A DNA stretch of 32,000 nucleotides. Source: Candidatus Saccharimonadota bacterium (GTDB lineage Bacteria; Patescibacteriota; Gracilibacteria; BD1-5; UBA2023). The stretch is taken from contig BAAFHK010000001.1 of assembly GCA_042852035.1 (NCBI GenBank), positions 240,001-272,000 on the forward strand, read 5' to 3'. A program made the translations under genes and the position numbers. Under the pieces are notes generated by a model. The model made no database searches, had not been told where the DNA came from, and was given only the letters and a program-made list of their open reading frames with translations. Shown here in pieces: positions 2,256-25,184 of this stretch; position 1 is the stretch's first letter; every line of letters starts with the position of its first letter.

Positions 2256-2342
2256 AAAATAATAGGGTTAGAAGTTACATATCCATCATACTGTGATTTG
2301 TTTTTGTGTCGAGTGAATTCAAGGAATAAATTTCTTCATATT

Positions 2343-2618
2343 TTATTTGCGAGTAGCAACATCCCAGGTTCGTAGGAGTTCGTCGATGAATGCATCTACC
2401 ACTCTTGGGTCGTCGGATGAAAGTTTTTTCTTTCCGCAACAGAGGAGATGGTCTCTCATGAGTTCGCGATTCGCGGATTTGAGGAGTCCCATTGTCGCAT
2501 TAATTTGATGTGCTACATCAGCACAGTAGACATCATTTTCTGCCATTTCGATGACCTTTTCGAGAGTCCCTCTTGCTTTCTTGAGACTTGTAATAATAGC
2601 TTTTCGTTCGTGTTGCAT
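2343..2618 (-). CDS. csoR: CsoR/RcnR-family metal-sensing transcriptional repressor
   Basis: 91 aa, intact in the ORF track. It shows the DUF156 pattern, with a C...H...C ligand arrangement (VYCADV ... DHLLCCG) as in copper-type CsoR. Confidence 0.85.
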   Translation of the reverse strand: MQHERKAIITSLKKARGTLEKVIEMAENDVYCADVAHQINATMGLLKSANRELMRDHLLCCGKKKLSSDDPRVVDAFIDELLRTWDVATRK

Positions 2619-3746: not shown

Positions 3747-5264
3747 TTATTTCTTTTTGTTCTTTCTGAAAATTTTCGATATTTTTGACTTTATTCGTAC
3801 CCCAAAAAAAGTGAAGCCCTGAGTGAGTCGATGGATCTTCTTTTCGAAAAATCCATGACTCTTTTTTTCCTCATTTCAGGACTTATTCTTCTTTTCTGAT
3901 CATTCTTTTTTCGTTGCCTTTTCAGGGCTTCCGAGATCTTCTTTGGTCCGGATGAGGGCATATTCTGTTGGTTTTTCTGGCACAGTGATATAGACATCGA
4001 CATGCCCACCATGAGCAGATTTCACCTCTTCACCCGAGAGTGAGTAGATTTTCTCGAGAGTAAAATCGACAGATTGTGTTGGGGAAATGAGTCTGAGCTT
4101 ATCTCCGACATCGATTCGATTTTTTACGATAATTCTTGCGATTTTTTCCTCCTTTGCGAGTGATGTAAGATTCTTTGGGACTTCATTGTCGGTTTGGATG
4201 ATTCCCGCCATTTCTTCCTCATGGAGTTCTTTATTTTTTTCGAAATAGATAGCTTTTTCTCCAGGGTTTCCGACCAGAAATCCTGGAGTATATCCACGAT
4301 TGGATATAGCAAATACTTCTTTCGAAAGTTTCATCGCATCGTACTCTATATTTTTCTCTACCGCATCGAGTGCTGGTCGATATGCGCGCCCGACTCAGGC
4401 GATATAATTCACCGTCTTACTTCGACCTTCTACCTTGAAGCTTACTACTCATGCATCAGCAAGTTCCTGCATATATGATAGGAGACAGATATCTCGTGAA
4501 TTCATGATGTAGGTTCCATATTCATCTTCATCGATTGGAAGCATTTCTCCTGGGCGTTCTTTTTCTTCGAGGTAAAATTCTCCCGTGAGTTCCTCATAGT
4601 CATCAGGTCGACCTGTCGAGTCATAGAGTTCCTCGGGTGAGGCGTCTTTTTTAAATACCTTATATTCCCAGCGACAACTATGGGAACAAGTTCATTGATT
4701 CGGATCACGGTGAGAGAAATAGTTCGAGAGGAGACATCGCCCAGAATACGCCATACATATTGCTCAATGGACAAAAAATTCAAGTTCGATATCTGGAACT
4801 TGCTCGTGGATTTCTTTCACTTCTTTGAGAGAGAGTTCACGAGAGAGTATTATGCGCTTCACTCCGAGGTCTCGCCAGAATTCTACTTGTGCCCAGTTAG
4901 TGTTGTTGGCTTGCACAGAGAGATGTATTTCTGCATTTGGGAAGTTTTTTCGCACGAGGTTGATGAGTCCAGGGTCGCTCATGATATAGGCATCAGGCTT
5001 CAGTGCTTCCATCTTCTCGAAGGCTTTCATAAAGGGTCCAATCTTCATATTGTGGGCGTAGATGTTTGCGGTGAAGTAGATTTTTTTCCCACGAGCATGA
5101 CAGTATTCGACCCCTTCCGCAAGAGTTTCCCAGGTGAATTGGTTTTCTCGAGCACGGAGAGAAAACATTGGCACTCAGGCGTATACAGCATCTGCTCCAT
5201 AGGCGATGGCGTATTTGAGCTTTTCGAGGTTACCAGCGGGCATGAGGAGTTCAAGTTTTTTCAT
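3747..5264 (-). CDS. Peptidase U32 family protein (YegQ/TrhP/RlhA-like)
   Basis: It starts MKKLELLMPAGNLEKLKYAIAYGADAVYAG and contains the family signature EFFVHGAICMAYSGRCLLSNYFSHRDPNQGTCSHSCRWEY. I checked every codon from 5264 to 3747. The former stop TGA 3900-3902 is followed by a 51-codon Lys-rich in-frame tail ending at TAA 3747-3749. Confidence 0.9.
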
Positions 5265-5584
5265 AAGTTGACAAATATAAAATAAAGGCTAAATTAATGG
5301 AACTTTTTTAAAATCACAATATATGTCATGAATTGAATGAGGAAGCCTTGGTGCAACACCAGATTCACAATTAAGGGATGTGCTTATTCAGGCATTTCCT
5401 CAAATGAGGGATATCGATAGCAAAGTACGGGATTTACCACAGGATGTAAGAGGTCGAATTCTTGATCTTATGTGTACTGGGCCTTTTCGGGAAGCTGATA
5501 TTTCTCTAACTGCAAGTGAAGAAGTTCTTAGTGCAGTTCGACAGGCCTATATGAATCACCTAAGAAGTCCAGCACATGGGCAAT

Positions 5585-5787
5585 AAAAAAATCGCACAGA
5601 ACTTTTGAAAGTAGAGTATCTGAAATCTTGAAATCGGAGCATGGATTGCTCGCCCCTCTCATGTGTCGCACCGCTTGGCGGATGCTCGCATTCGGGGGCA
5701 TGGATCGCACATAGTGCTTACACATCGTACCTCGCAATGACAGAATAGTGGGAACTTTCAAAGAGGGTTCTGCACGACTTCTCTTTT
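5585..5787 (-). ncRNA. Candidate ~200-nt rod-shaped ncRNA (6S-like architecture, class not assigned)
   Basis: A perfect -10 TATAAT (minus strand, 5799-5794) sits about 7 nt upstream of the predicted 5' end. The 5' arm (5783-5767) pairs with the 3' arm (5602-5586) over 17 bp, with 5 G-U pairs that would be A-C mismatches on the plus strand. A nested 9-bp helix (5762-5754 with 5612-5604) and a 6-bp helix (5747-5741 with 5622-5617) follow. The RNA ends in a U7 tract. The interior is GC-enriched and hairpin-rich, and I see no convincing ORF. Confidence 0.45.
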
Positions 5788-5924
5788 GGGCGAATTATAG
5801 AGAAAATTTTGTGAAATCAAGTTTTCTCTATTTTGCGTTTATAAACAAGAAACCCAAATCCCTAAAAGAAAAATTGCTATTATCTGGCGTCTAGTTATAG
5901 TAGTTTTGCTACTAAGTTACTACT

Positions 5925-6770
5925 ATGAAACGCAAATTTTCTTCATGGATTATTCTATTTATTGCTGTTGGTATTACTTTTTTTAGTATAGAAGAATTCT
6001 ATCAGACTCATGAGGAAAATACGCTTCCTTCACAAAAATTGGGAGTCTCTTCTGAATTAGTTCATCCTGAACCTCTTCCAAAAAGTGCATGACAACAAGA
6101 TTGTTCCATGAATGGAACATGGTTCCAAGAAAATGAACGTGAGGGATATCAGAGTTGACTTATTGATTGTGATCATGCTGTTTCATATAACCTACTTGAT
6201 GGAACTGTAGAGTCAATAACGGGAGCTTCAACTTTTGAAAAATGATATATTTCAGATGATAACGGGACATATTTTGCATTAAACGTAAAAAGCTGTTGAT
6301 GAGCTCCATGTGAATTTAGAAAGATATCTCCAAAAACCAGATTACAAATTATGAATAATTCATGAGTATTATTTGCGAGTGATGGAATCAATATCTTTTA
6401 TAATGGCATAATTCTGAAGTGAGCTACGAAAATATCAGATTTTATTGTGCTCAATGACACGGTTTGATGAGTGATATTTCGAAATTCTGATACGGTTTGG
6501 TTCGATGGGCAAGCTATAGAATGAGCTGATTCAAGAACATTTAAAATTATTTCAGGAAGTGAAGAGGGGAGCTCTTCGGTATTTGCATCGGATAAAAAGT
6601 ATTGCTATCATCTTTTATCGTATTGAGGTGATTCTGGCGTTATTCCAGAGTGTATTCCAGAGAATTTCCGTACCCTCTGAAAGGAATATTCCACTGATGG
6701 AAAAAGTGTATTCTTGCAAAATAGTAAAATCGAAGGGGCGAACCCACTTACTTTCAGGCTTCCACAATAA
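5925..6770 (+). CDS. DKNYY-repeat family protein, N-terminally membrane-anchored
   Basis: 281 aa with 14 in-frame TGA, all checked in frame. There is an N-terminal TM (WIILFIAVGITFF). Repeated units are of the type DKKYCYHL / GKSVFLQNSKIEGANPLTFRL / VWFDGQAIEGADSRTFKII. The stop is TAA 6768-6770. The standard-code ORF 6559-6774 is in another frame. Confidence 0.8.
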
Positions 6771-6772
6771 AT

Positions 6773-6805
6773 AAAAAATTCCCTCCAAATCGGAGGGAAT
6801 TTTTA
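6773..6805. terminator. Bidirectional intrinsic terminator
   Basis: 10-bp stem aattccctcc / ggagggaatt with a 5-nt loop, flanked by A6 and T5 runs. It lies between convergent genes and overlaps the stop of the MBL gene. Confidence 0.75.
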
Positions 6806-7501
6806 TTCGAGTCCAAGTTTTAGATTTGCTGGAAGAGCGACATCGAGGAATTTTGGTGGAGCGAGATGAAGTGCATTCATTGTTTCAGTGAATGCTTCGA
6901 GCGTGGTCTCAGTTCGAATACGAGTATTGTATTGTTTCTCTTCGCCAATTGTTGACATCATATGCCCTGCATAATCGTGTCCTGGATAGACCTTTGTATC
7001 ATCAGGGAGTGTGTACATTTTGTCTTTGATTGAGTGGTACATCTTCTCGGGAGATCCTTGTTGGAAGTCAGTACGTCCCGTCTTTCGGATGAAGAGCACA
7101 TCCCCAGAAAAAAGCATATCTCCGATAACAAATGAGGTGCATCCATCCGTATGACCTGGAGTTGAGAGGGCTTTTATTTCTATATTCCCGACCGTAAGGA
7201 CTTCTCCATCATGAAGGAGGATATCAGGTTTTGCGACTGCAGCACCTTCTCCAAGGGCAATCTTGGCTCCTGTTTTCTCCCGGAGTACCCCACTTCATGT
7301 GATGTGATCGGCGTGGATATGGGTATCGAGGATATAACTGAGAGTGAGTCCGAGTTCGGTGAGGAGCTTCATATCTCGTTCGACTTGTTCACGGACAGGA
7401 TCAATAATGACCGCTTCTTGGGTCTCGCTATCCGCGACGATGTAAGTGTAAGTCCAGGTCTTCTCATCGAAGAGTTGGCGGAAGATGATAGTGTTGTTCA
7501 T
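6803..7501 (-). CDS. MBL-fold hydrolase, ETHE1/Blh-type persulfide dioxygenase-like
   Basis: 232 aa with the motifs DTHIHADHITG, STPGHTDGC, FSGDVLFIRKTGRTDFQQGS and VYPGHDY. There is one TGA=Gly at 7295-7297. I checked every codon across the 7117-7295 gap. Confidence 0.85.
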
Positions 7502-7504
7502 AAT

Positions 7505-7532
7505 TTGACAGTTTAAATAATATTGTTATATT
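7505..7532 (+). promoter_or_regulatory. Sigma70-like promoter facing the plus strand
   Basis: TTGACA (7505-7510), a 16-nt spacer, then TATATT (7527-7532). It points into the spacer between tauE and the MBL gene, both of which are on the minus strand. Confidence 0.4.
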
Positions 7533-7539
7533 TAATTTA

Positions 7540-7715
7540 TCACATACTCGCGGAGGTTAGATGGTCGAATCGATTCTCATCTGTGCTTTCGCGGCATGGG
7601 TGCTCGAAAGAGTGGTTTTCACGGTGCCCTCGAAGATTCGATGGGCAATCGCAACGGTGTTCATGACCATCATCTGGCATGTGACGCTCTACATGAGGGG
7701 GTAACCCCTTTTTTT
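7540..7715 (+). ncRNA. Candidate ~175-nt sRNA antisense to the tauE-MBL spacer (class unknown)
   Basis: It begins just downstream of the 7505-7532 promoter. It ends in a GGGG-UAA-CCCC hairpin followed by T7 (7697-7715), which acts as a terminator only in the plus orientation. The interior is GC-enriched, with a GCUC-GAAA-GAGU hairpin and a CAUGU...ACAUG hairpin. The alternative reading is a minus-strand His/Cys-rich ORF (see noticed_but_rejected). Confidence 0.35.
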
Positions 7716-7785
7716 GTATTAATTTTTGAAGCAACTTTGCCAGAATCGAGTGGCACACCAGTGTCAGAAAGGTTTCATAGATAAA

Positions 7786-8553
7786 TTAGAAAAAAAGTTC
7801 TTTCGAAAGCATAACGACAGCTGCCGTCATCGTGAAGTAACCAAATCCCTGAGTCAGATGTTCACTCGCGAGATATTTCTGGAGAAAAAGTCCGATAGTG
7901 AGTCCACCGACAGCAATGAATACGAGCGTCGCGAGAAATGCCGTGTCAACCTCAGGAGGAATCCTTCATGCAGCTCCTATAAGCATATTGAGTGAGATAA
8001 TGCTCATGGAGGTCGCGATAGCCTTTTTCCCTTCGAGTCACTCGAAGAACATGAGTGCTGGTACGATGAGGAATCCAACTCCAGCTCAAACGAGCCCAGT
8101 GATAAATCCAACAACTCCTCCCCTGAGTCAGGTGCGTAAAATTTTTCCATGGGTTGAATACGTATTTTTCGCACTACTTAGAGATTTTTTCTTACAGATC
8201 ATCGAGCAGCCAGAGGCAAACATGATGAAGGTGAAGAGGATGAGGAGGTAGGTGGATTTTTCGAGGATCCAGAGATGTTCTGGAAGGGTCGGGAGGATAT
8301 ATCTGCGAGTCAGGACTGTGATGATGATCGAGGGGATGGCGAAATGAAATCCTGTCTTCCATGAGATACGGTTGTGTGCGAGAAATGTCCCGATGACTGA
8401 GGTTGATCCAACGATGATCATGCTATAAAACGTCGCGAGGAGAGGATCAATATGAAATCCATATACGAGCGTAGGAATCGCGAAAATCCCTCCGCCACCT
8501 CCGACGAGTCAGATAATAATCCCGACAAGGATAAAGAGAAGAAGGGAAAACAT
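7786..8553 (-). CDS. TauE/SafE (DUF81) family sulfite/anion exporter
   Basis: 255 aa, polytopic. It starts MFSLLLFILVGIIIGLVGGGGGIFAIPTLVY and has the second-half repeat GGVVGFITGLVGAGVGFLIVPALMFF. The start codon overlaps the trx stop (TAATG at 8551-8555). The stop is TAA 7786-7788. Confidence 0.9.
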
Positions 8554-8864
8554 TAGAGGTATTTTTCGATTAAGGTCTTGAGTTCATCGACATATTTCAC
8601 TCCGACGACCTTCTCGACGGGTTTCCCGTCTTGGAAGAGAATCATTGTCGGGATTGATCTGATTTGGAAGGCATTTGGCACATTGGGTTCATTATCGACA
8701 TTGTGCTTCATGACTCGCATTTTGCCGTCCATCACCTTCGCGAGTTCTTCGAGGATGGGTCCCATCATCTGACAGGGTCCGCACCATGGTGCCCAGAAAT
8801 CGACGAGGACGACACCTTTCTCGATATCACGAGCGAAATTATTATCCGTAGAAGTGTATGTCAT
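8553..8864 (-). CDS. trxA: Thioredoxin
   Basis: 103 aa from the internal ATG at 8864: MTYTSTDNNFARDIEKGVVLVDFWAPWCGPCQMMGPILEE... It has the canonical WCGPC motif. The longer upstream extension in the ORF track is hydrophobic junk that overlaps the promoter. Confidence 0.9.
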   Translation of the reverse strand: MTYTSTDNNFARDIEKGVVLVDFWAPWCGPCQMMGPILEELAKVMDGKMRVMKHNVDNEPNVPNAFQIRSIPTMILFQDGKPVEKVVGVKYVDELKTLIEKYL

Positions 8865-11537: not shown

Positions 11538-11921
11538 TTACTGAACTATCTTTACATTTTGTATACTATCCATACCGCCAACATCCCTTATATTCGTATA
11601 TCATGCATTTTTGAGAATGTTGTATGCAATAGCAGATCGTCGTCCACTACGACAATAGAGGTTCACAGGAGTGTTTTTCGGAATAATAGAAAAATTTCCT
11701 GCTTCAATATCTCCGAGTTTTACGTGCATGGCTCACTCGATGTGGCCAGCTGTCCATTCGCTATCTTCGCGGACATCGACATAGAGTACTGATTCCTTTC
11801 ACTGAGTCTCCGAAGAGACGGAAGCACTTGGGAGAGAGCTACTCGATCAAGCTGGGGGAGGGGAGTTGGTACAACTTGCGAGAGAAAGAAGGGCACCAAA
11901 GAGAAGAATATATTTGAGCAT
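11538..11921 (-). CDS. Rhodanese-domain lipoprotein (sulfurtransferase)
   Basis: 127 aa. The signal peptide has a lipobox (MLKYILLFGALLSLAS-C). Rhodanese motifs are VLYVDVREDSEWTAGHIEGA and the active-site loop YCRSGRRS. Confidence 0.85.
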
Positions 11922-13117: not shown

Positions 13118-13462
13118 TTAAAAGAGACCAAAAAATCATTTTTTCTCACTTCGCACAACCTTATCTGCGAAATCATTTTCTATGGCATTCATGCCACCAG
13201 AAAGGTTGTATCCCTTGATGCCTTCACCTTCTGCAAACATTGTTGCTTGAGCAGATCTTCCGCCACTTCGGCAAATAAATACAACCTTTTTTGACTTATC
13301 GATTTCACTCATGCGAACGGGAAGGATGTGAAGGGGGATATTTTTTGCTTCTTTGAGGCGAGCTTCATCATATTCACCGGTTCCACGTACATCAATGAGT
13401 TCGATGGTCTCTGGTGCGGTTGTGAGTGATTCCATGAGTTCCTTGGCAGAGAGAGTATTCAT
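13118..13462 (-). CDS. Single-domain rhodanese (sulfurtransferase)
   Basis: 114 aa with the active-site loop FICRSGGRS. TGA 13136-13138 is read through for 5 codons (GFFGLF) to TAA 13118-13120. Confidence 0.9.
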
Positions 13463-17207: not shown

Positions 17208-17246
17208 ACGTTAATTTTGGGAAGATTTCATAAAAAGAATATTTTC

Positions 17247-18590
17247 TAGAGAGAATTTCTTTCCAGATATCCAAACATTGGGTGATTTTATGTCTTCCTC
17301 TCCCTCGAAAAAGCCAGTAACAGCTCCATTTTCGAGATCATTCACGAGCATCTTTTTTATTTTTTTGATTATTCCCATCTTTTCCATCACATCGTAGACA
17401 CGATTTACTCCATCGATATATCACATATTTGTCATTCGAACAATCTCTTCGATACGGTCACCGTGAACCTCAAAGTTATTATCATCGATACGAGTAAGGG
17501 TATAACGTTTTGCATCCCGTGAATCATCTCTGAGATCAAAAAAGCGCACACTTCTTTGATTATTTAATGATGATTCTCATTCAGATTCATTTCGTATTGT
17601 TTCTGGAATTGTTTGAAGGAGAAGATCTTTTAGCTCATCAACACGGATATAGGCTCAGGCAGAGATAGTCAGTGCTACTGTTTTTCCGGTTTTCTTTTCG
17701 AAATATTTTACGATCTCATTGAGATGATCAGGATCGACAAGTTCAGATTTAGAAAAGATTATAAGTTCCTGCTTTTTACTCATTTCTTCATTCCATTTTT
17801 CAAGCTCAGTTCGTATAATCTTATAATTTTCTATCATTTCATCCTCTCAGACAGTAGCGTCAATGAGATGAATAATAATTCGACATCGTTCAATGTGCTT
17901 GAGAAATTGAAATCCAAGCCCCTTTCCTTCGCTCGCTCCTTCTATAAGCCCTGGAACATCTTCTATAACGAGTGATCGTCATTTCCATTCCATAACCCCA
18001 AGGTTTGGTATGAGGGTTGTGAAAGCGTAATTTGCAATTTTTGGTTTTACATTGGTGATTGATTGGATAACTGTTGATTTTCCAGCATTTGGAAGTCCAA
18101 CGAGTCCAACATCAGCCACAAGCTTAAGTTCAAGCTTTACTTCACGCTCTTCTCAAGTATCGCCAAGTTCTGCAAAGTTGGGAGCCTGTCTTGTCGAGGA
18201 AGGGAAGTGGGCATTTCCGAACCCTCCTCTTCATCCCTGACAAAGTAAAAATTCTTGCCCCGGATGGGTAAGGTCAACAATTATTTCTCCATCTTCCATA
18301 TCAGTTATAACTGTTCCAACGGGAACTTCGAGTATGGTGTCTTCTGCGGTCTTTCCGTGCATTTCTTGAGTGGCTCATCGTTCACCTTCAGCGGCTTTTA
18401 TGATTTTTGCATGACGATATCTAATAAGGGTCGTTTCATGGGTAGTAGCTCTGAGGATGATGTTTCCTCCATTTCCCCCATCTCACCCATATGGACCTCC
18501 GTTTGGAATATATTTTTCCCTTCTCCAAGAGACAGATCCGTCTCCTCATTTTCCAGCTCGACAGGTCAGGAGCACTTCATCGATAAACAT
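17247..18590 (-). CDS. obg: GTPase Obg/CgtA with a C-terminal OCT-like domain
   Basis: 447 aa: [42 protein letters not shown]..., with the G1 motif GLPNAGKST and [12 protein letters not shown] falls on conserved Gly in GK-G-GDG, YG-G-DGG, ER-G- and QG-G-RGG. I walked every codon to TAG 17247-17249. Confidence 0.95.
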
Positions 18591-18739
18591 ACTTCAATTC
18601 TTAAAAAGTAGAACATTTTCGCTGAATATACCAAAAAAATCAAGAAAAGCAAAACTGAAACTTGCAAAATAAAAAAATTCTATATGATACGTGCATTCCT
18701 CAATTTTTGAGTAAACCATCATTATATAATATCTCTATT

Positions 18740-21365: not shown

Positions 21366-24062
21366 ATGGCTTACGATCACTTACGGATAGAAAAAAAATG
21401 GCAGAAATTTTGGGAAGAAAATACCACTTTTTCGACTCCTACTATTTCTGAAAAGCCAAAAAAATATATTCTCGATATGTTTCCATATCCATCGGGGGCT
21501 GGGCTTCACGTTGGTCATCCGAAATGATATACTGCAACAGATATTGTATCTCGTTACTATCATGCAAAGTGATATAACGTTCTTCATACCATGGGTTGGG
21601 ATGCTTTTGGATTGCCCGCTGAAAACTACGCCATAAAGACGGGTACACATCCTGCTATTACTACAGCACAAAATGTCACCACTTTTCGCTCCCAGATGAA
21701 GTCTCTCGGATTCTCATATGATTGGAGTCGTGAAATAGATACAACCGATCCAGAATATTATAAATGGACTCAATGGATTTTTCTTGAACTCTTCAAGCGA
21801 TGACTTGCTTACGAACAAGATCTTCCTATTAACTATTGTCCAAGTTGTAAAACTTGACTGGCAAATGAAGAGGTTCTCGCTGATAATACCTGTGATAGAT
21901 GTGGGACTCGCGTAGAACGTCGCCCAATACGACAATGGGTACTCAAAATCACTGAGTATGCAGATAGGCTTATAGAAGATCTCGAGAGTCTTGATTGGCC
22001 AGAAGGAATCAAAGAAATGCAGAGAAATTGGATAGGGAAAAGTGAGGGATGTGAGTTTGAGATGAAAAAATCTGACGATCAAACAAAAAGTATTCGCGTC
22101 TATACAACCCGTGTAGATACAGTCTTTGGGATGACGTATGCTGTACTTGCTCCAGATCATCCAAGAGTTAGAGAATTTATTACTGAAGAACAGAGACAAA
22201 TTTGTGAAAAATATATTGAATGAGTTAAGTGAAAATCTGATCTTGATCGAACAAATGAAGGTAAAAGTAAAACGGGGGTATTTACCGGATCTTATGTGAT
22301 AAATCCTTATAATGGTGAATCAGTTCCCCTTTGGATTGCTGATTTTGTTCTTGGTCATTATTGAACGGGTGCTCTTATGGCAGTTCCTGCTCACGATGAA
22401 CGAGATAGGGAATTTGCTCATTTATATTGACTTCCTATTGTTCAAAGCGTTCAAACTTCAGTTCCATTTGATGGTTGATCCTGGAAAAAGGAATATGGAG
22501 AAGATGGTATAAGCTTGGCTCTTAATCTTCCCTCAAGCGAGTCTCGAAAAGCTCTTACTGAAAAAGCAGAAAAAGAAGGCTTCTGAGAAAAAAAAGTCAA
22601 TTATAAACTTCGTGACTGGCTCTTTTCTCGTCAGAGATATTGGGGTGAGCCAATACCACTCATCCATATTGCATGAGATGATTTTGATGCACTTCCTCGT
22701 ATTGCTGACATTTCAGAGGCAAAAGACATGAATATTGCTTATATTCTTGATAAGCGAGGGACAGATAAGCGGTGTAAAAATTGTACTTGTGGTGATGTTG
22801 GTTGTGTAAAGCTTATTATCGGTGGAAAATCCTACTCAAGAGTTTATGACGGAATCTACTCAAAGATTCTTATCGATCCAAATCTTCCTGTTACGCTTCC
22901 AGAAGTTGAAAAATATGAGCCAGCAGGAGATGGTCAATCACCGCTTGCGAATGTTCCGGATTGGGTAAATATTAAACTTGCTGATAATCTCAGTGGAAAA
23001 AGAGAAACCAATACGATGCCACAGTGGTGAGGAAGTTGTTGGTACTACCTGCGATATATGGATCCGAGAAATAAAGAGGTTCTCGCAAATAAAGAGGCTC
23101 TTGATTATTGGGGAATTGTAGACGAGTATGTGGGTGGCGCTGAACATGCTGTTCTTCATCTTCTTTATGCTCGTTTCTGGCATAAGGTTCTCTTCGATGC
23201 TTGAGTTGTTCCGAAAAATGAACCATTCCAAAAGCTTACAAATGTCTGAATGATTCTTGCCTATGCTTATGAGCGAGAAGATGGAGGCCTCGTAGCGGTT
23301 GATCTTGTTATAGAGAAAGATGGAAAATTCTATGAAAAAGAAACACAAAAAGAGGTGAAGCAAGTGGTGGCAAAGATGAGTAAATCTCTCAAAAATGTAG
23401 TCAACCCAAATGATATCGTCAATGAATATGGAGCTGATACCCTTAGACTCTATGAGATGAGTATGGCTTGATTTACCGATACGGCTCCATGGAATCCTGA
23501 GGCGATTATCTGAGTTCGAAGATTTCTTGATCGAGTTTATGCGAGTTTCACAGAGTGAAAGAATCAGGCTCGTGATGATATGAAAGCGATGAAACTCCTT
23601 CATAAAACGGTGAAGAAGGTAGGAGAAGATATTGAGGGATATAAATTCAATACTGCAATTTCAGCACTCATGATCCTCCTCAATGAATGAATCCCTTCCG
23701 ATCTCGATTTTCGAAAGGAGTGGAGAGAAAAATTTCTCATACTTCTTCATCCATTTGCACCACATATTGCTGAAGAGCTTTGGATGTTTGATCATATGGG
23801 AGAGCGACCGATTTCTATTTCCACCTTTGCATGGCCAAATTTTGATGAATTTATGCTTGTGGATGATGAAGTGACTATTGCGGTTCAGGTGAATGGAAAA
23901 CTTCGAGGCACTCTTACTTGTTTTAATGGAGTAGCACAAGAAGAAGTCTCGGCACTCGCTCATGCAGATGAAAGTATAGCAAAGTGGCTTCTTGGAAAGA
24001 TTCTCGTCAAAGAAATTTTTATTCCAAATAAAATGCTCTCAATCGTTGTACGAGACGAGTAG
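21366..24062 (+). CDS. leuS: Leucine--tRNA ligase
   Basis: 898 aa in one frame (2697 nt) with many TGA=Gly. It has the HVGH (HIGH) motif, [10 protein letters not shown] (KMSKS), and the conserved blocks [17 protein letters not shown] and [11 protein letters not shown]. The stop is TAG 24060-24062. Confidence 0.97.
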
Positions 24063-24075
24063 GATGATTATCTTT

Positions 24076-24103
24076 TTGACAATTTATGTAAAAAGAATAG
24101 GAT
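24076..24103 (+). promoter_or_regulatory. Sigma70-like promoter of the RNA candidate
   Basis: TTGACA (24076-24081), a 16-nt spacer, then TAGGAT (24098-24103), directly after the leuS stop. Confidence 0.4.
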
Positions 24104-24109
24104 TCCCAA

Positions 24110-24436
24110 ATCCACGCAGTGCTCTGCTGTCGTGGATGAGGAGCTGAACCCTACCGTTCAGAGAAAAAGAGGTGTTTCTTGGCTACTACCGATACCCCCG
24201 ATACCCGAAAGGGTACTACCGCAACTCAACCTCAGCGTCGGCGTGTCCCCAAAGGTCATGCCGCACTCCAGCACGACCTGAATCCTTGTTCACGTCGTGA
24301 CTCGGACCAAACCCCGATCTTCTGGGTTCAGGCATTCCATCATCCGGGTGCATTACGGAGGGATTGATTCGCTACGGCGAGCATCGGCTTTCTCGGAAGC
24401 TTACCTTCATTCTTTTGGCCGCCTTCGGGCGGCTTT
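24110..24436 (+). ncRNA. Candidate ~330-nt structured ncRNA, class not assigned
   Basis: A GC-enriched, ORF-poor segment bracketed by a promoter and terminators. The hairpins I could draw are:
- 24111-24136 (tccacg/cgtgga)
- 24144-24161 (ctgaac/gttcag)
- 24202-24215 with a GAAA tetraloop
- 24272-24299 (cacgac..tgaa/ttca..gtcgtg)
- 24310-24328 (aaccc/gggtt)
- 24418-24433 (gccgcc-UUCG-ggcggc), followed by UUU. Confidence 0.5.
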
Positions 24437-24447
24437 AACATTTAAAC

Positions 24448-24734: not shown

Positions 24735-25184
24735 ATGACCCGTACCCGAATGAACCTGGCGGCTCTGGCCGCACTCGCATCCTGCGCCGGCAACGCGACC
24801 GCCCACGTGCGTACCAAGTTCGACGTCGACACCGATCCCAAGAAGGGCATCTGCGCCATCAGCGATGGCACCGACGGCGCGATCGGCGGCGGCACCGGCG
24901 TGGTCAGCACCGAAGGCGGCGAGAACAGCAATGGCACCGGCGTGGTGAACCAGGCTGGCACCGACGGCAGCGCGATCGACGGCAACCAGCAGCAGATGCA
25001 GCAGGCCGGCGCCGCGAGCACCCAGGAAGGCGATGGCCGCACGTACGACGCCAGCGCGCAGCAGCAGGCCGATGTGAGCCGCGAAGGCGATGGCAACCAG
25101 CAGCAGGCCGAGATCCCGGTGGACCGTTCCGACACCCAGCAGGGCTGATGTCGAGGTGAAGGCAGGAGTGTGGTGGAAAGATAA
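24735..25184 (+). CDS. Compositionally foreign lipoprotein, low-complexity G/T/D/Q-rich (standard-code end 25148; code 25 end 25184)
   Basis: GAGGAG lies 6 nt upstream of the ATG. The signal peptide plus lipobox is MTRTRMNLAALAALAS-C. Third codon positions are almost all G/C. Internal repeats are GTGVV x2, EGDG x2 and NQQQ x2. There is no internal TGA. The terminal TGA 25146-25148 would be read as Gly here, adding GCRGEGRSVVER before TAA 25182-25184. The overlapping ORFs in other frames and strands look like typical high-GC shadows. Confidence 0.6.

Follow-up and report, generated by a model that had tools for sequence, protein, structure and literature searches.

The window analysed here, a stretch of DNA of 32,000 nucleotides, encodes on its minus strand an RNA of ~203 nt (about 5787 to 5585) that is structured, conserved in related genomes, linked to a trhP-like gene and capable of two folds that exclude each other. 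On balance we read it as the 5' leader of this gene and as a member of an undescribed leader family of Gracilibacteria, most likely a transcription attenuator or riboswitch-like element, because an early hairpin (P0) and the terminator are mutually exclusive. Termination and read-through at this site, as well as the regulation of termination and its direction, we infer from the sequence.

The minus-strand RNA and its surroundings

With the standard genetic code no ORF of more than 240 codons is found in the 32 kb and nearly every gene is split into short ORFs. When TGA is read as a sense codon long genes appear, among them ispG (226-1452), leuS (21366-24062), obg (17211-18722), the U32 peptidase gene and others. 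We assign the window to Gracilibacteria and its genes to code 25 (TGA = Gly); the choice of code follows from the glycines of GHPxGY, which we take to be the conserved LeuRS motif and which fall on TGA. The RNA lies in a 630-nt gap, and the next gene on the same strand, which encodes the U32 protein, starts 320 nt downstream of it. This protein contains the Pfam domains PF01136 and PF16325 and matches the NCBIfam model NF011996 (TrhP) over its full length with 488.8 bits, which is under the cut-off of 534; we classify it as TrhP-like (prephenate-dependent tRNA U34 hydroxylase). NCBI has an identical protein under the name YegQ, in an entry for 'Candidatus Altimarinota' (Gracilibacteria). A small gene that is convergent with the RNA occupies part of the interval up to trhP, and its stop codon (5584-5586) falls in the U tract of the RNA. 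Its 87-aa product belongs to no Pfam or NCBIfam family and a large protein database returned only the protein itself. Still, the ORF is probably real, because an orthologous 78-aa ORF that is conserved at the protein level occupies the same place in the closest relative, L117 (232-468, minus strand). The coordinates of the RNA and its genes are collected in Table 1.

Table 1. Positions in the window of the RNA elements and of the two genes downstream
Feature	Position	Strand	Description
Promoter	5794..5821	-	CTTGAT, 16-nt spacer, TATAAT (-10 box 5799-5794)
Closing helix P1	5783-5767 with 5586-5602	-	17 contiguous pairs
P1 5' arm	5767..5783	-	GAGAAGUCGUGCAGAAC; shares nucleotides with the P0 stem and loop
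P1 3' arm	5585..5602	-	GUUCUGUGCGAUUUUUU; enters the U7 tract (5591-5585)
P0 hairpin	5760..5786	-	AAAGAG (5786-5781) with CUCUUU (5765-5760)
P2 5' strand	5754..5762	-	UUUGAAAGU; perfect 9-bp inverted repeat
P2 3' strand	5604..5612	-	ACUUUCAAA; pairs with 5762-5754
Interior motif 1	5730..5741	-	GUCAUUGCGAGG; from comparison with relatives
Interior motif 2	5635..5650	-	AGCAAUCCAUGCUCCG; from comparison with relatives
Window-specific insert	5651..5724	-	74 nt, 61% GC, apical part
trhP-like U32 gene	3747..5264	-	505 aa (code 25); next same-strand gene
Small gene	5323..5586	+	87 aa (code 25); between leader and trhP, convergent with the RNA

An earlier, sequence-only reading of this DNA had proposed a rod-shaped RNA of about 200 nt on the minus strand, and reading and folding both strands of 5585-5799 bears this out: the minus strand folds at -74.6 kcal/mol (z = -5.77, with none of 200 shuffled sequences as good), against z = -1.96 for the plus strand. 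The TATAAT box that had been noticed upstream is present and has CTTGAT 16 nt further upstream. Transcription would start near A5787, about 7 nt past the box, and the sequence supports a sigma-70-type promoter that belongs to the RNA itself as well as an end at the U tract. Read base for base, the outer helix P1 has the 17 contiguous pairs that had been claimed for it. Five of them are G-U (5783/5586, 5781/5588, 5778/5591, 5774/5595 and 5773/5596), and each of these would be an A-C mismatch on the plus strand. The 3' arm does run into seven U's, as described, with the adjustment that six of the seven already fall within the helix, where they pair with the purine-rich 5' end. Together, the two arms of P1 would form an end that resembles an intrinsic terminator. 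The nested 9-bp helix P2 is perfect, and an asymmetric internal loop, CCCUC (5767-5763), lies immediately 5' of its 5' strand. The 6-bp helix placed inside P2 was approximate only, since the minimum-energy fold has 4+3+5 pairs with small loops at this point, followed by a branched GC-rich core. This core is rich in hairpins, as had been stated, and is formed by the 74-nt insert.

Several other features of the window were noted. A 13-nt inverted repeat, ATAGAGAAAAYTT / AARTTTTCTCTAT, at 5797-5831 encloses the -35 element of the RNA promoter and overlaps the -10 box; read on the plus strand it gives a hairpin followed by TTTTGCGTTT. Repeats of differing sequence also surround the -35 element in L112/L103, L117 and L004, and the repeat in the window may serve as an operator or as an upstream terminator. 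The gene neighbourhood has a sulfur- or redox-like character (2343-2618, 6803-8864, 11538-11921, 13118-13462), with a CsoR/CstR-like repressor, DUF305, a persulfide dioxygenase-like MBL-fold protein, a TauE exporter and thioredoxin. The ORFs at 11538-11921 and 13118-13462 are putative rhodaneses by eye, and the trhP neighbours of relatives include genes for AhpC, glutaredoxin and rubredoxin reductase. Directly after leuS, about 355 nt of non-coding DNA (24090-24445, ~55% GC) has a GGCCGCCTTCGGGCGGC hairpin at its end. It folds better than shuffled sequences on both strands (z = -2.9 and -3.6), has no Rfam match and may be a structured RNA of a new kind or foreign DNA. Lastly, a plus-strand ORF of 137 aa (24735-25148) encodes a lipoprotein-like signal peptide and is by eye roughly two-thirds GC in a genome of ~38% GC. 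It stops at TGA, like a gene of the standard code, and its features point to a recent transfer or an assembly chimera.

Relatives and the two forms of the leader

Contigs encoding close U32 homologues were fetched, and every one of them has matching 5' and 3' arms shortly upstream of the gene and on its strand. A covariance model (R1) of the form found in the window, which we call type A, was run over 80 Gracilibacteria U32 loci with one genome per species. All matches (L013-L016, L018-L021, L023, L024 and L045) lie upstream of the gene and are co-oriented with it, with none elsewhere in these loci. Independently of the U32 gene, metagenomes were scanned with a degenerate 19-base pattern, GAAGTCGTGCAGWACCCTC. 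This gave 19 stretches, of which 15 are real copies of the RNA and four are chance matches in GC-rich coding sequence. A U32 gene follows downstream in all 13 real matches with sufficient contig, the contigs of L093 and L102 ending too early. When a second form, type B, is counted as well, 28 of the 80 loci have a leader, always upstream of the gene. Homologues are thus found in many Gracilibacteria, 17-500 nt upstream of trhP and co-oriented with it in every lineage found, and the neighbours upstream of the RNA vary between lineages.

The closest relatives (TrhP 88-94% identical) carry type A RNA too. The family comprises about 17 sequence types with lengths of 60-136 nt, compared with about 203 nt in the window. 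All type A folds are rods, and the 14 homologues from other genomes have z values from -2.4 to -9.0. Conservation of the helices in related genomes had been set beforehand as the test of the proposed structure, and relatives do keep the closing helix, as they keep the promoter and the U tract. The 21-nt 5' segment AGAGAAGUCGUGCAG(A/U)ACCCUC is invariant apart from the A/U site, and the 5' arm of P1 is likewise identical across 22 aligned homologues bar one A/U site. Changes occur in the 3' arm and mostly keep the pairs: U-G to U-A in four sequences, G-U to G-C in five and G-C to G-U in two. In the P1 alignment 94% of the cells are paired; the mismatches are U-U in L014, L023, L024 and L045, C-A in L016 and C-C in L117. 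P2 keeps its position with other sequences (UUUUAGAAAAU/AUUUUCUAAAA, UUGGAAGU/ACUUCCAA and UUGGAUG/CAUCCAA). Interior motif 1 is common to L004, L009, L010, L014, L015, L021, L023, L024, L045 and L112 and absent in L003, L115 and L005. A promoter of the form CTTG..N..TATAAT/TATATT stands 10-12 nt before AAAGAG in 13 relatives (L003, L009, L010, L014, L015, L021, L023, L024, L045, L103, L112, L115 and L117). In L014 the interval from the RNA to the U32 gene contains a reversed partial copy of the interior motif (CUGUCACUCGCGAAGAAUGAAGCAAUCCAG; 2259-2344, minus strand), which suggests that the interior module can duplicate or move.

The type B leader was found among the U32 loci that R1 did not match. 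It stands upstream of trhP in more distant Gracilibacteria (L017, L022, L025, L027-30, L032-34, L036-37, L040-41, L044, L046 and L047) and consists of a TTGACT..TACAAT promoter, the P0 hairpin, one or two more hairpins and a compact separate terminator directly before the ATG. It has no Rfam match at gathering score or at E <= 10. Its P0 loop, UAAUAGUGCACAC, also written (U)AAUAGUGCACAC, has a conserved GUGCA. In type A the loop has 15 nt, AAGUCGUGCAGAACC (5780-5766 in the window), and is invariant bar one A/U site (CAGAAC or CAGUAC). The two forms share the position of the promoter and the P0 hairpin. That they are one element is shown by the flanks, which are nearly identical in L022 (type B, AAAGAG-UAAUAGUGCACACA-CUCUUUGGAU) and L004 (type A, AAAGAG-AAGUCGUGCAGAACC-CUCUUUGGAU).

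The P0 stem varies with compensation (AUUCAAAG/UUUUGAAU, AUUCAAGG/UCUUGAAU, CGGGU/ACCCG, GAGGU/GCCUC, GAGC/GCUC and UCGAAGU/ACUUCGG), and its closing pair is G-U in 11 leaders. A model of P0 (R2) was used to align 31 distinct leaders of both forms. In this alignment, which is fitted to the model and whose sequences represent two related clades, the share of paired cells is 88.7% (shuffles: 70.4 +/- 2.0), both sides change in seven of the eight pairs, and the covariation is 0.536 against 0.249 in shuffles, with none of 500 shuffles reaching the observed score. P0 registers that were slid along the sequence all scored lower. Comparison of own with swapped flanks gave a modest effect (5.95 vs 4.31), because many of the stems are biased in purines and pyrimidines, and the model-based pair count is the better measure of P0.

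Every P0 loop of type B has a complementary partner downstream, in a register that varies by lineage. Some of the changes between loop and partner are compensatory (GCACACUCU:GG-UAGUGUGC, GGGUAGUGC:GCACUCCC, GAUAGUGC:GCACUAUU and UGCACAUA:UAUGUGCA). In type A the partner of the loop is the 3' arm of P1, with the U's immediately after it; therefore, the loop pairing itself creates the terminator. A constant loop with a changeable downstream partner is the pattern that would be expected of a sensor joined to an expression platform.

A possible attenuation mechanism

Folded alone, the first 34 nt of the RNA adopt P0 as their minimum-energy structure (-6.1 kcal/mol), and P0 has about -6 kcal/mol in both forms. 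In the full window RNA the rod has -72.6 kcal/mol, compared with -55.9 kcal/mol when P0 is forced, and it is favoured by about 17 kcal/mol. According to these computed folds P0 and P1 exclude each other in type A, as P1 uses the AAAGAG strand and the loop of P0. An attenuator could work with these parts as follows. Once transcription has begun past the TATAAT box, the first ~30 nt would fold as the weak P0, the candidate sensor or anti-terminator, whose 15-nt loop bears the invariant GUGCA core. The distal strand GUUCUGUGCGAUUUUUUU, once made, could invade P0 by pairing both to its loop and to the purine-rich 5' end, giving the 17-bp P1 on top of the rod, followed by the U's. P1 would then act as an intrinsic terminator and release the ~203-nt RNA. 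An effector that holds P0 closed or occupies its loop would prevent P1, and the polymerase would read on toward trhP. Alternatively, a factor that stabilises the helix between loop and partner would favour termination. Candidate effectors are TrhP itself, its tRNA substrate and a small molecule. The sensor consists of a hairpin loop only, which is small for a metabolite aptamer.

A more specific version, which we advance as a rather unlikely one, is that the P0 loop senses the substrate cycle of the enzyme. It could mimic a U34 anticodon loop and be bound by TrhP, in which case the enzyme would regulate itself, or it could kiss the anticodon loop of a U34 tRNA. The loop core GUGCA, which holds both UGC and GCA, is complementary to what we take to be U34-G35-C36-A37-C38 of a tRNA-Ala(UGC)-type loop. 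No tRNA-Ala gene is present in the fetched loci. If the kissing version were true, expression of the hydroxylase would respond to the state of its tRNA substrate.

The attenuator reading places the RNA beside the terminator/anti-terminator leaders such as the T-box, the PyrR site and the L10 leader. As in those, the element would lie in the 5' untranslated region of a single gene family, with a conserved sensor hairpin, a variable expression platform that ends in a hairpin and U's, early and late structures that are mutually exclusive, and early termination that yields a discrete short RNA. Unlike those, neither form has an Rfam family, the sensor loop of the window form is the 5' arm of a rod terminator of 100-200 nt and not of a compact local one, and the element is separated from its gene in some genomes. 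The preQ1 riboswitches are also small hairpin or pseudoknot sensors for genes of tRNA position 34 modification, and type B is predicted to be able to form an H-type pseudoknot between the P0 loop and a downstream strand. However, there is no sequence or model match to preQ1 riboswitches, and the gene here belongs to the xo5U34 hydroxylation and not to the queuosine pathway.

Spacing to trhP and other explanations

The gap between the U tract and the ATG of trhP falls into several ranges: 17-23 nt (L003, L004, L024, L115 and L016), 49-57 nt (L103, L112 and L045), 74-84 nt (an oral lineage, see below) and 305-498 nt (L009/L010, L015, L117, the window, L023, L021 and L014). A simple hexamer scan for promoters in the spacers of the eight short-gap loci (17-57 nt) gave no match in four and weak -10-like hexamers in the rest. 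Since a gap of 17-57 nt leaves little or no room for a promoter, trhP is most likely reached at these loci by read-through of the terminator of the RNA. Seven lineages, the window among them, have 300-500 nt between RNA and trhP, and often an unrelated small gene lies there. These spacers contain genes for a membrane protein of 58-63 aa (L009 and L015), a GIY-YIG protein (L021) or the 87-aa protein (the window and, as an orthologue, L117); in L009, L015, L023, L117 and the window the spacer gene runs on the opposite strand. A TATAAT- or TATATT-like box usually adjoins trhP in the long gaps. Since the RNA is nonetheless fully conserved in these lineages, an independent function would suit them no less well.

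The main rival reading, possible if doubtful, is a small RNA gene in its own right, possibly derived from a leader and simply syntenic with trhP, whose functional product would be the ~203-nt transcript itself, acting in trans or binding a protein. Such a gene would have its own consensus promoter and terminator, as the RNA does in nearly every lineage, and would be kept in the seven long-gap lineages despite the intervening gene and the separate TATAAT-like box; the invariant 5' segment with a rest that turns over is what a seed or a protein-binding site would leave, and the rod shape survives a complete change of the interior sequence. What an independent gene does not explain is that one and the same gene is adjacent and co-oriented across about 17 sequence types whose other neighbours differ, that it starts 17-57 nt past the U tract in eight lineages without a convincing promoter between, and that type B has the classical layout of a leader with its separate terminator. 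By analogy to the leader-derived small RNAs SreA/SreB and EutX/Rli55 (the former of Listeria), a prematurely terminated leader could persist and act alone, a likeness that fits the lineages in which the RNA is separated from trhP. Unlike for those RNAs, about 0.5 Mb of related loci revealed no complementarity to a trans target, nor was a second copy found there.

We give a low probability to an unregulated structural element, that is a long-hairpin terminator or insulator, perhaps bidirectional and without sensing, which in the window would end both a short RNA and the convergent 87-aa gene. Such an element is suggested by the oral and human-associated lineage (L005, L018 and L095-L111), where a tRNA-Lys(UUU) gene is followed after about 65 nt by the RNA in the form of a bare 60-nt hairpin with U's; this form lacks a promoter of its own, and a TATATT box stands between it and trhP. 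Such an element would also account for the stop codon of the convergent gene inside the U/A tract, and bidirectional terminators typically have an A-rich 5' end that pairs with the U tract. A mere terminator would, however, not be expected to keep an invariant 21-nt arm, a promoter of its own 10 nt upstream and an alternative hairpin that covaries among loci with TrhP 66-100% identical, and the plus-strand helix has five A-C mismatches and folds at z = -2.0.

It is very unlikely that the feature acts at the level of DNA, as an operator palindrome around GTGCAC or as a mobile element of the miniature inverted-repeat type whose terminal repeats would be the 17-bp arms. The arms are indeed inverted repeats, type B leaders contain the GTGCAC palindrome and the interval between RNA and trhP has repeatedly received small genes. 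However, the G-U pairs, five in P1 and the closing pair of P0 in 11 leaders, are strand-specific, the arms covary and are not conserved half-sites, and the spacing between them ranges from about 20 to 164 nt. The element is also single-copy and syntenic, with one copy in the window, one per locus and the real GAAGTCGTGCAGWACCCTC matches at the same site.

The sequence-only reading had likened the RNA to 6S RNA (Rfam RF00013), which regulates transcription globally by binding RNA polymerase holoenzyme as a mimic of an open promoter; the window copy resembles it in length (about 200 nt), long closing stem, internal loops and rod-like shape, but the identity is exceedingly improbable, as Rfam 15 gave no match at gathering score in the whole window and none relevant to 6S or any other family even at E <= 10 (5450-5950, both strands), small internal loops and a branched GC core replace the large two-sided central bubble, the homologues are unbranched rods of 60-136 nt, conservation lies in the 5' hairpin and closing helix and not in an open-promoter mimic, and the element is strictly linked to a single gene, trhP.

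Other identities were tried and rejected. ARAGORN finds no tRNA or tmRNA in the window. The motifs that we assume for SRP RNA (GGAA tetraloop/AGCA), RNase P RNA (GGAAAGUCC) and Y RNA (Ro-binding stem) are absent by eye, and Rfam is silent on all three. A phage origin found no blastn match in a phage collection and no pattern match in viral contigs. An 86-aa code-25 ORF spans the RNA on the minus strand, but the open frame is not the same one in the relatives, and the conserved arms are spaced at distances whose differences are not multiples of three. A type I toxin-antitoxin system, considered for the small hydrophobic convergent ORF in L009/L015, was rejected as most lineages have no gene in this interval and those that occur are not related from one lineage to the next. 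An integron attC site or MITE was rejected because the element does not fit the core-site consensus and is a single-copy, syntenic feature. The 5' arm presumably resembles helix 93 of 23S rRNA, and CCUC the C2501 region, likenesses too short to weigh.

The window copy itself is an expanded, partly uncoupled variant of the leader. Its 74-nt insert is absent in L112, L115 and L116 (TrhP 88-91% identical), and L117 has only a short GCCCGUUAGGGG GC hairpin at this site. The insert has no second copy within the window; by its sequence it may have arisen when the interior motifs GUCAUUGCGAGG and AGCAAUCCAUGCUCCG were duplicated internally and then diverged. Only L117 shares the 320-nt spacer and its convergent small gene, and in the window this spacer also has a TATATT box near the ATG of trhP, so that read-through to trhP is doubtful here. 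Because of the insert and of this spacer with its convergent gene, we are less sure that the window copy controls trhP than we are for the whole family.

To our knowledge very few regulatory RNAs have been described in Gracilibacteria or in the rest of the ultrasmall bacteria of the candidate phyla, and we know of no leader RNA described for the tRNA xo5U34 hydroxylation pathway. If the P0 loop does sense the substrate cycle of the enzyme, this would be the first known leader that controls a tRNA wobble-uridine hydroxylase, and a new class of regulatory RNA from the candidate phyla radiation. The family also offers an example of how leaders drift, since inserts were gained and the element became separated from its gene while remaining intact. 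With two forms that differ in platform and keep a constant sensor loop, it is a candidate orphan riboswitch or attenuator, and its effector would reveal what Gracilibacteria monitor to set the modification of their wobble uridines.
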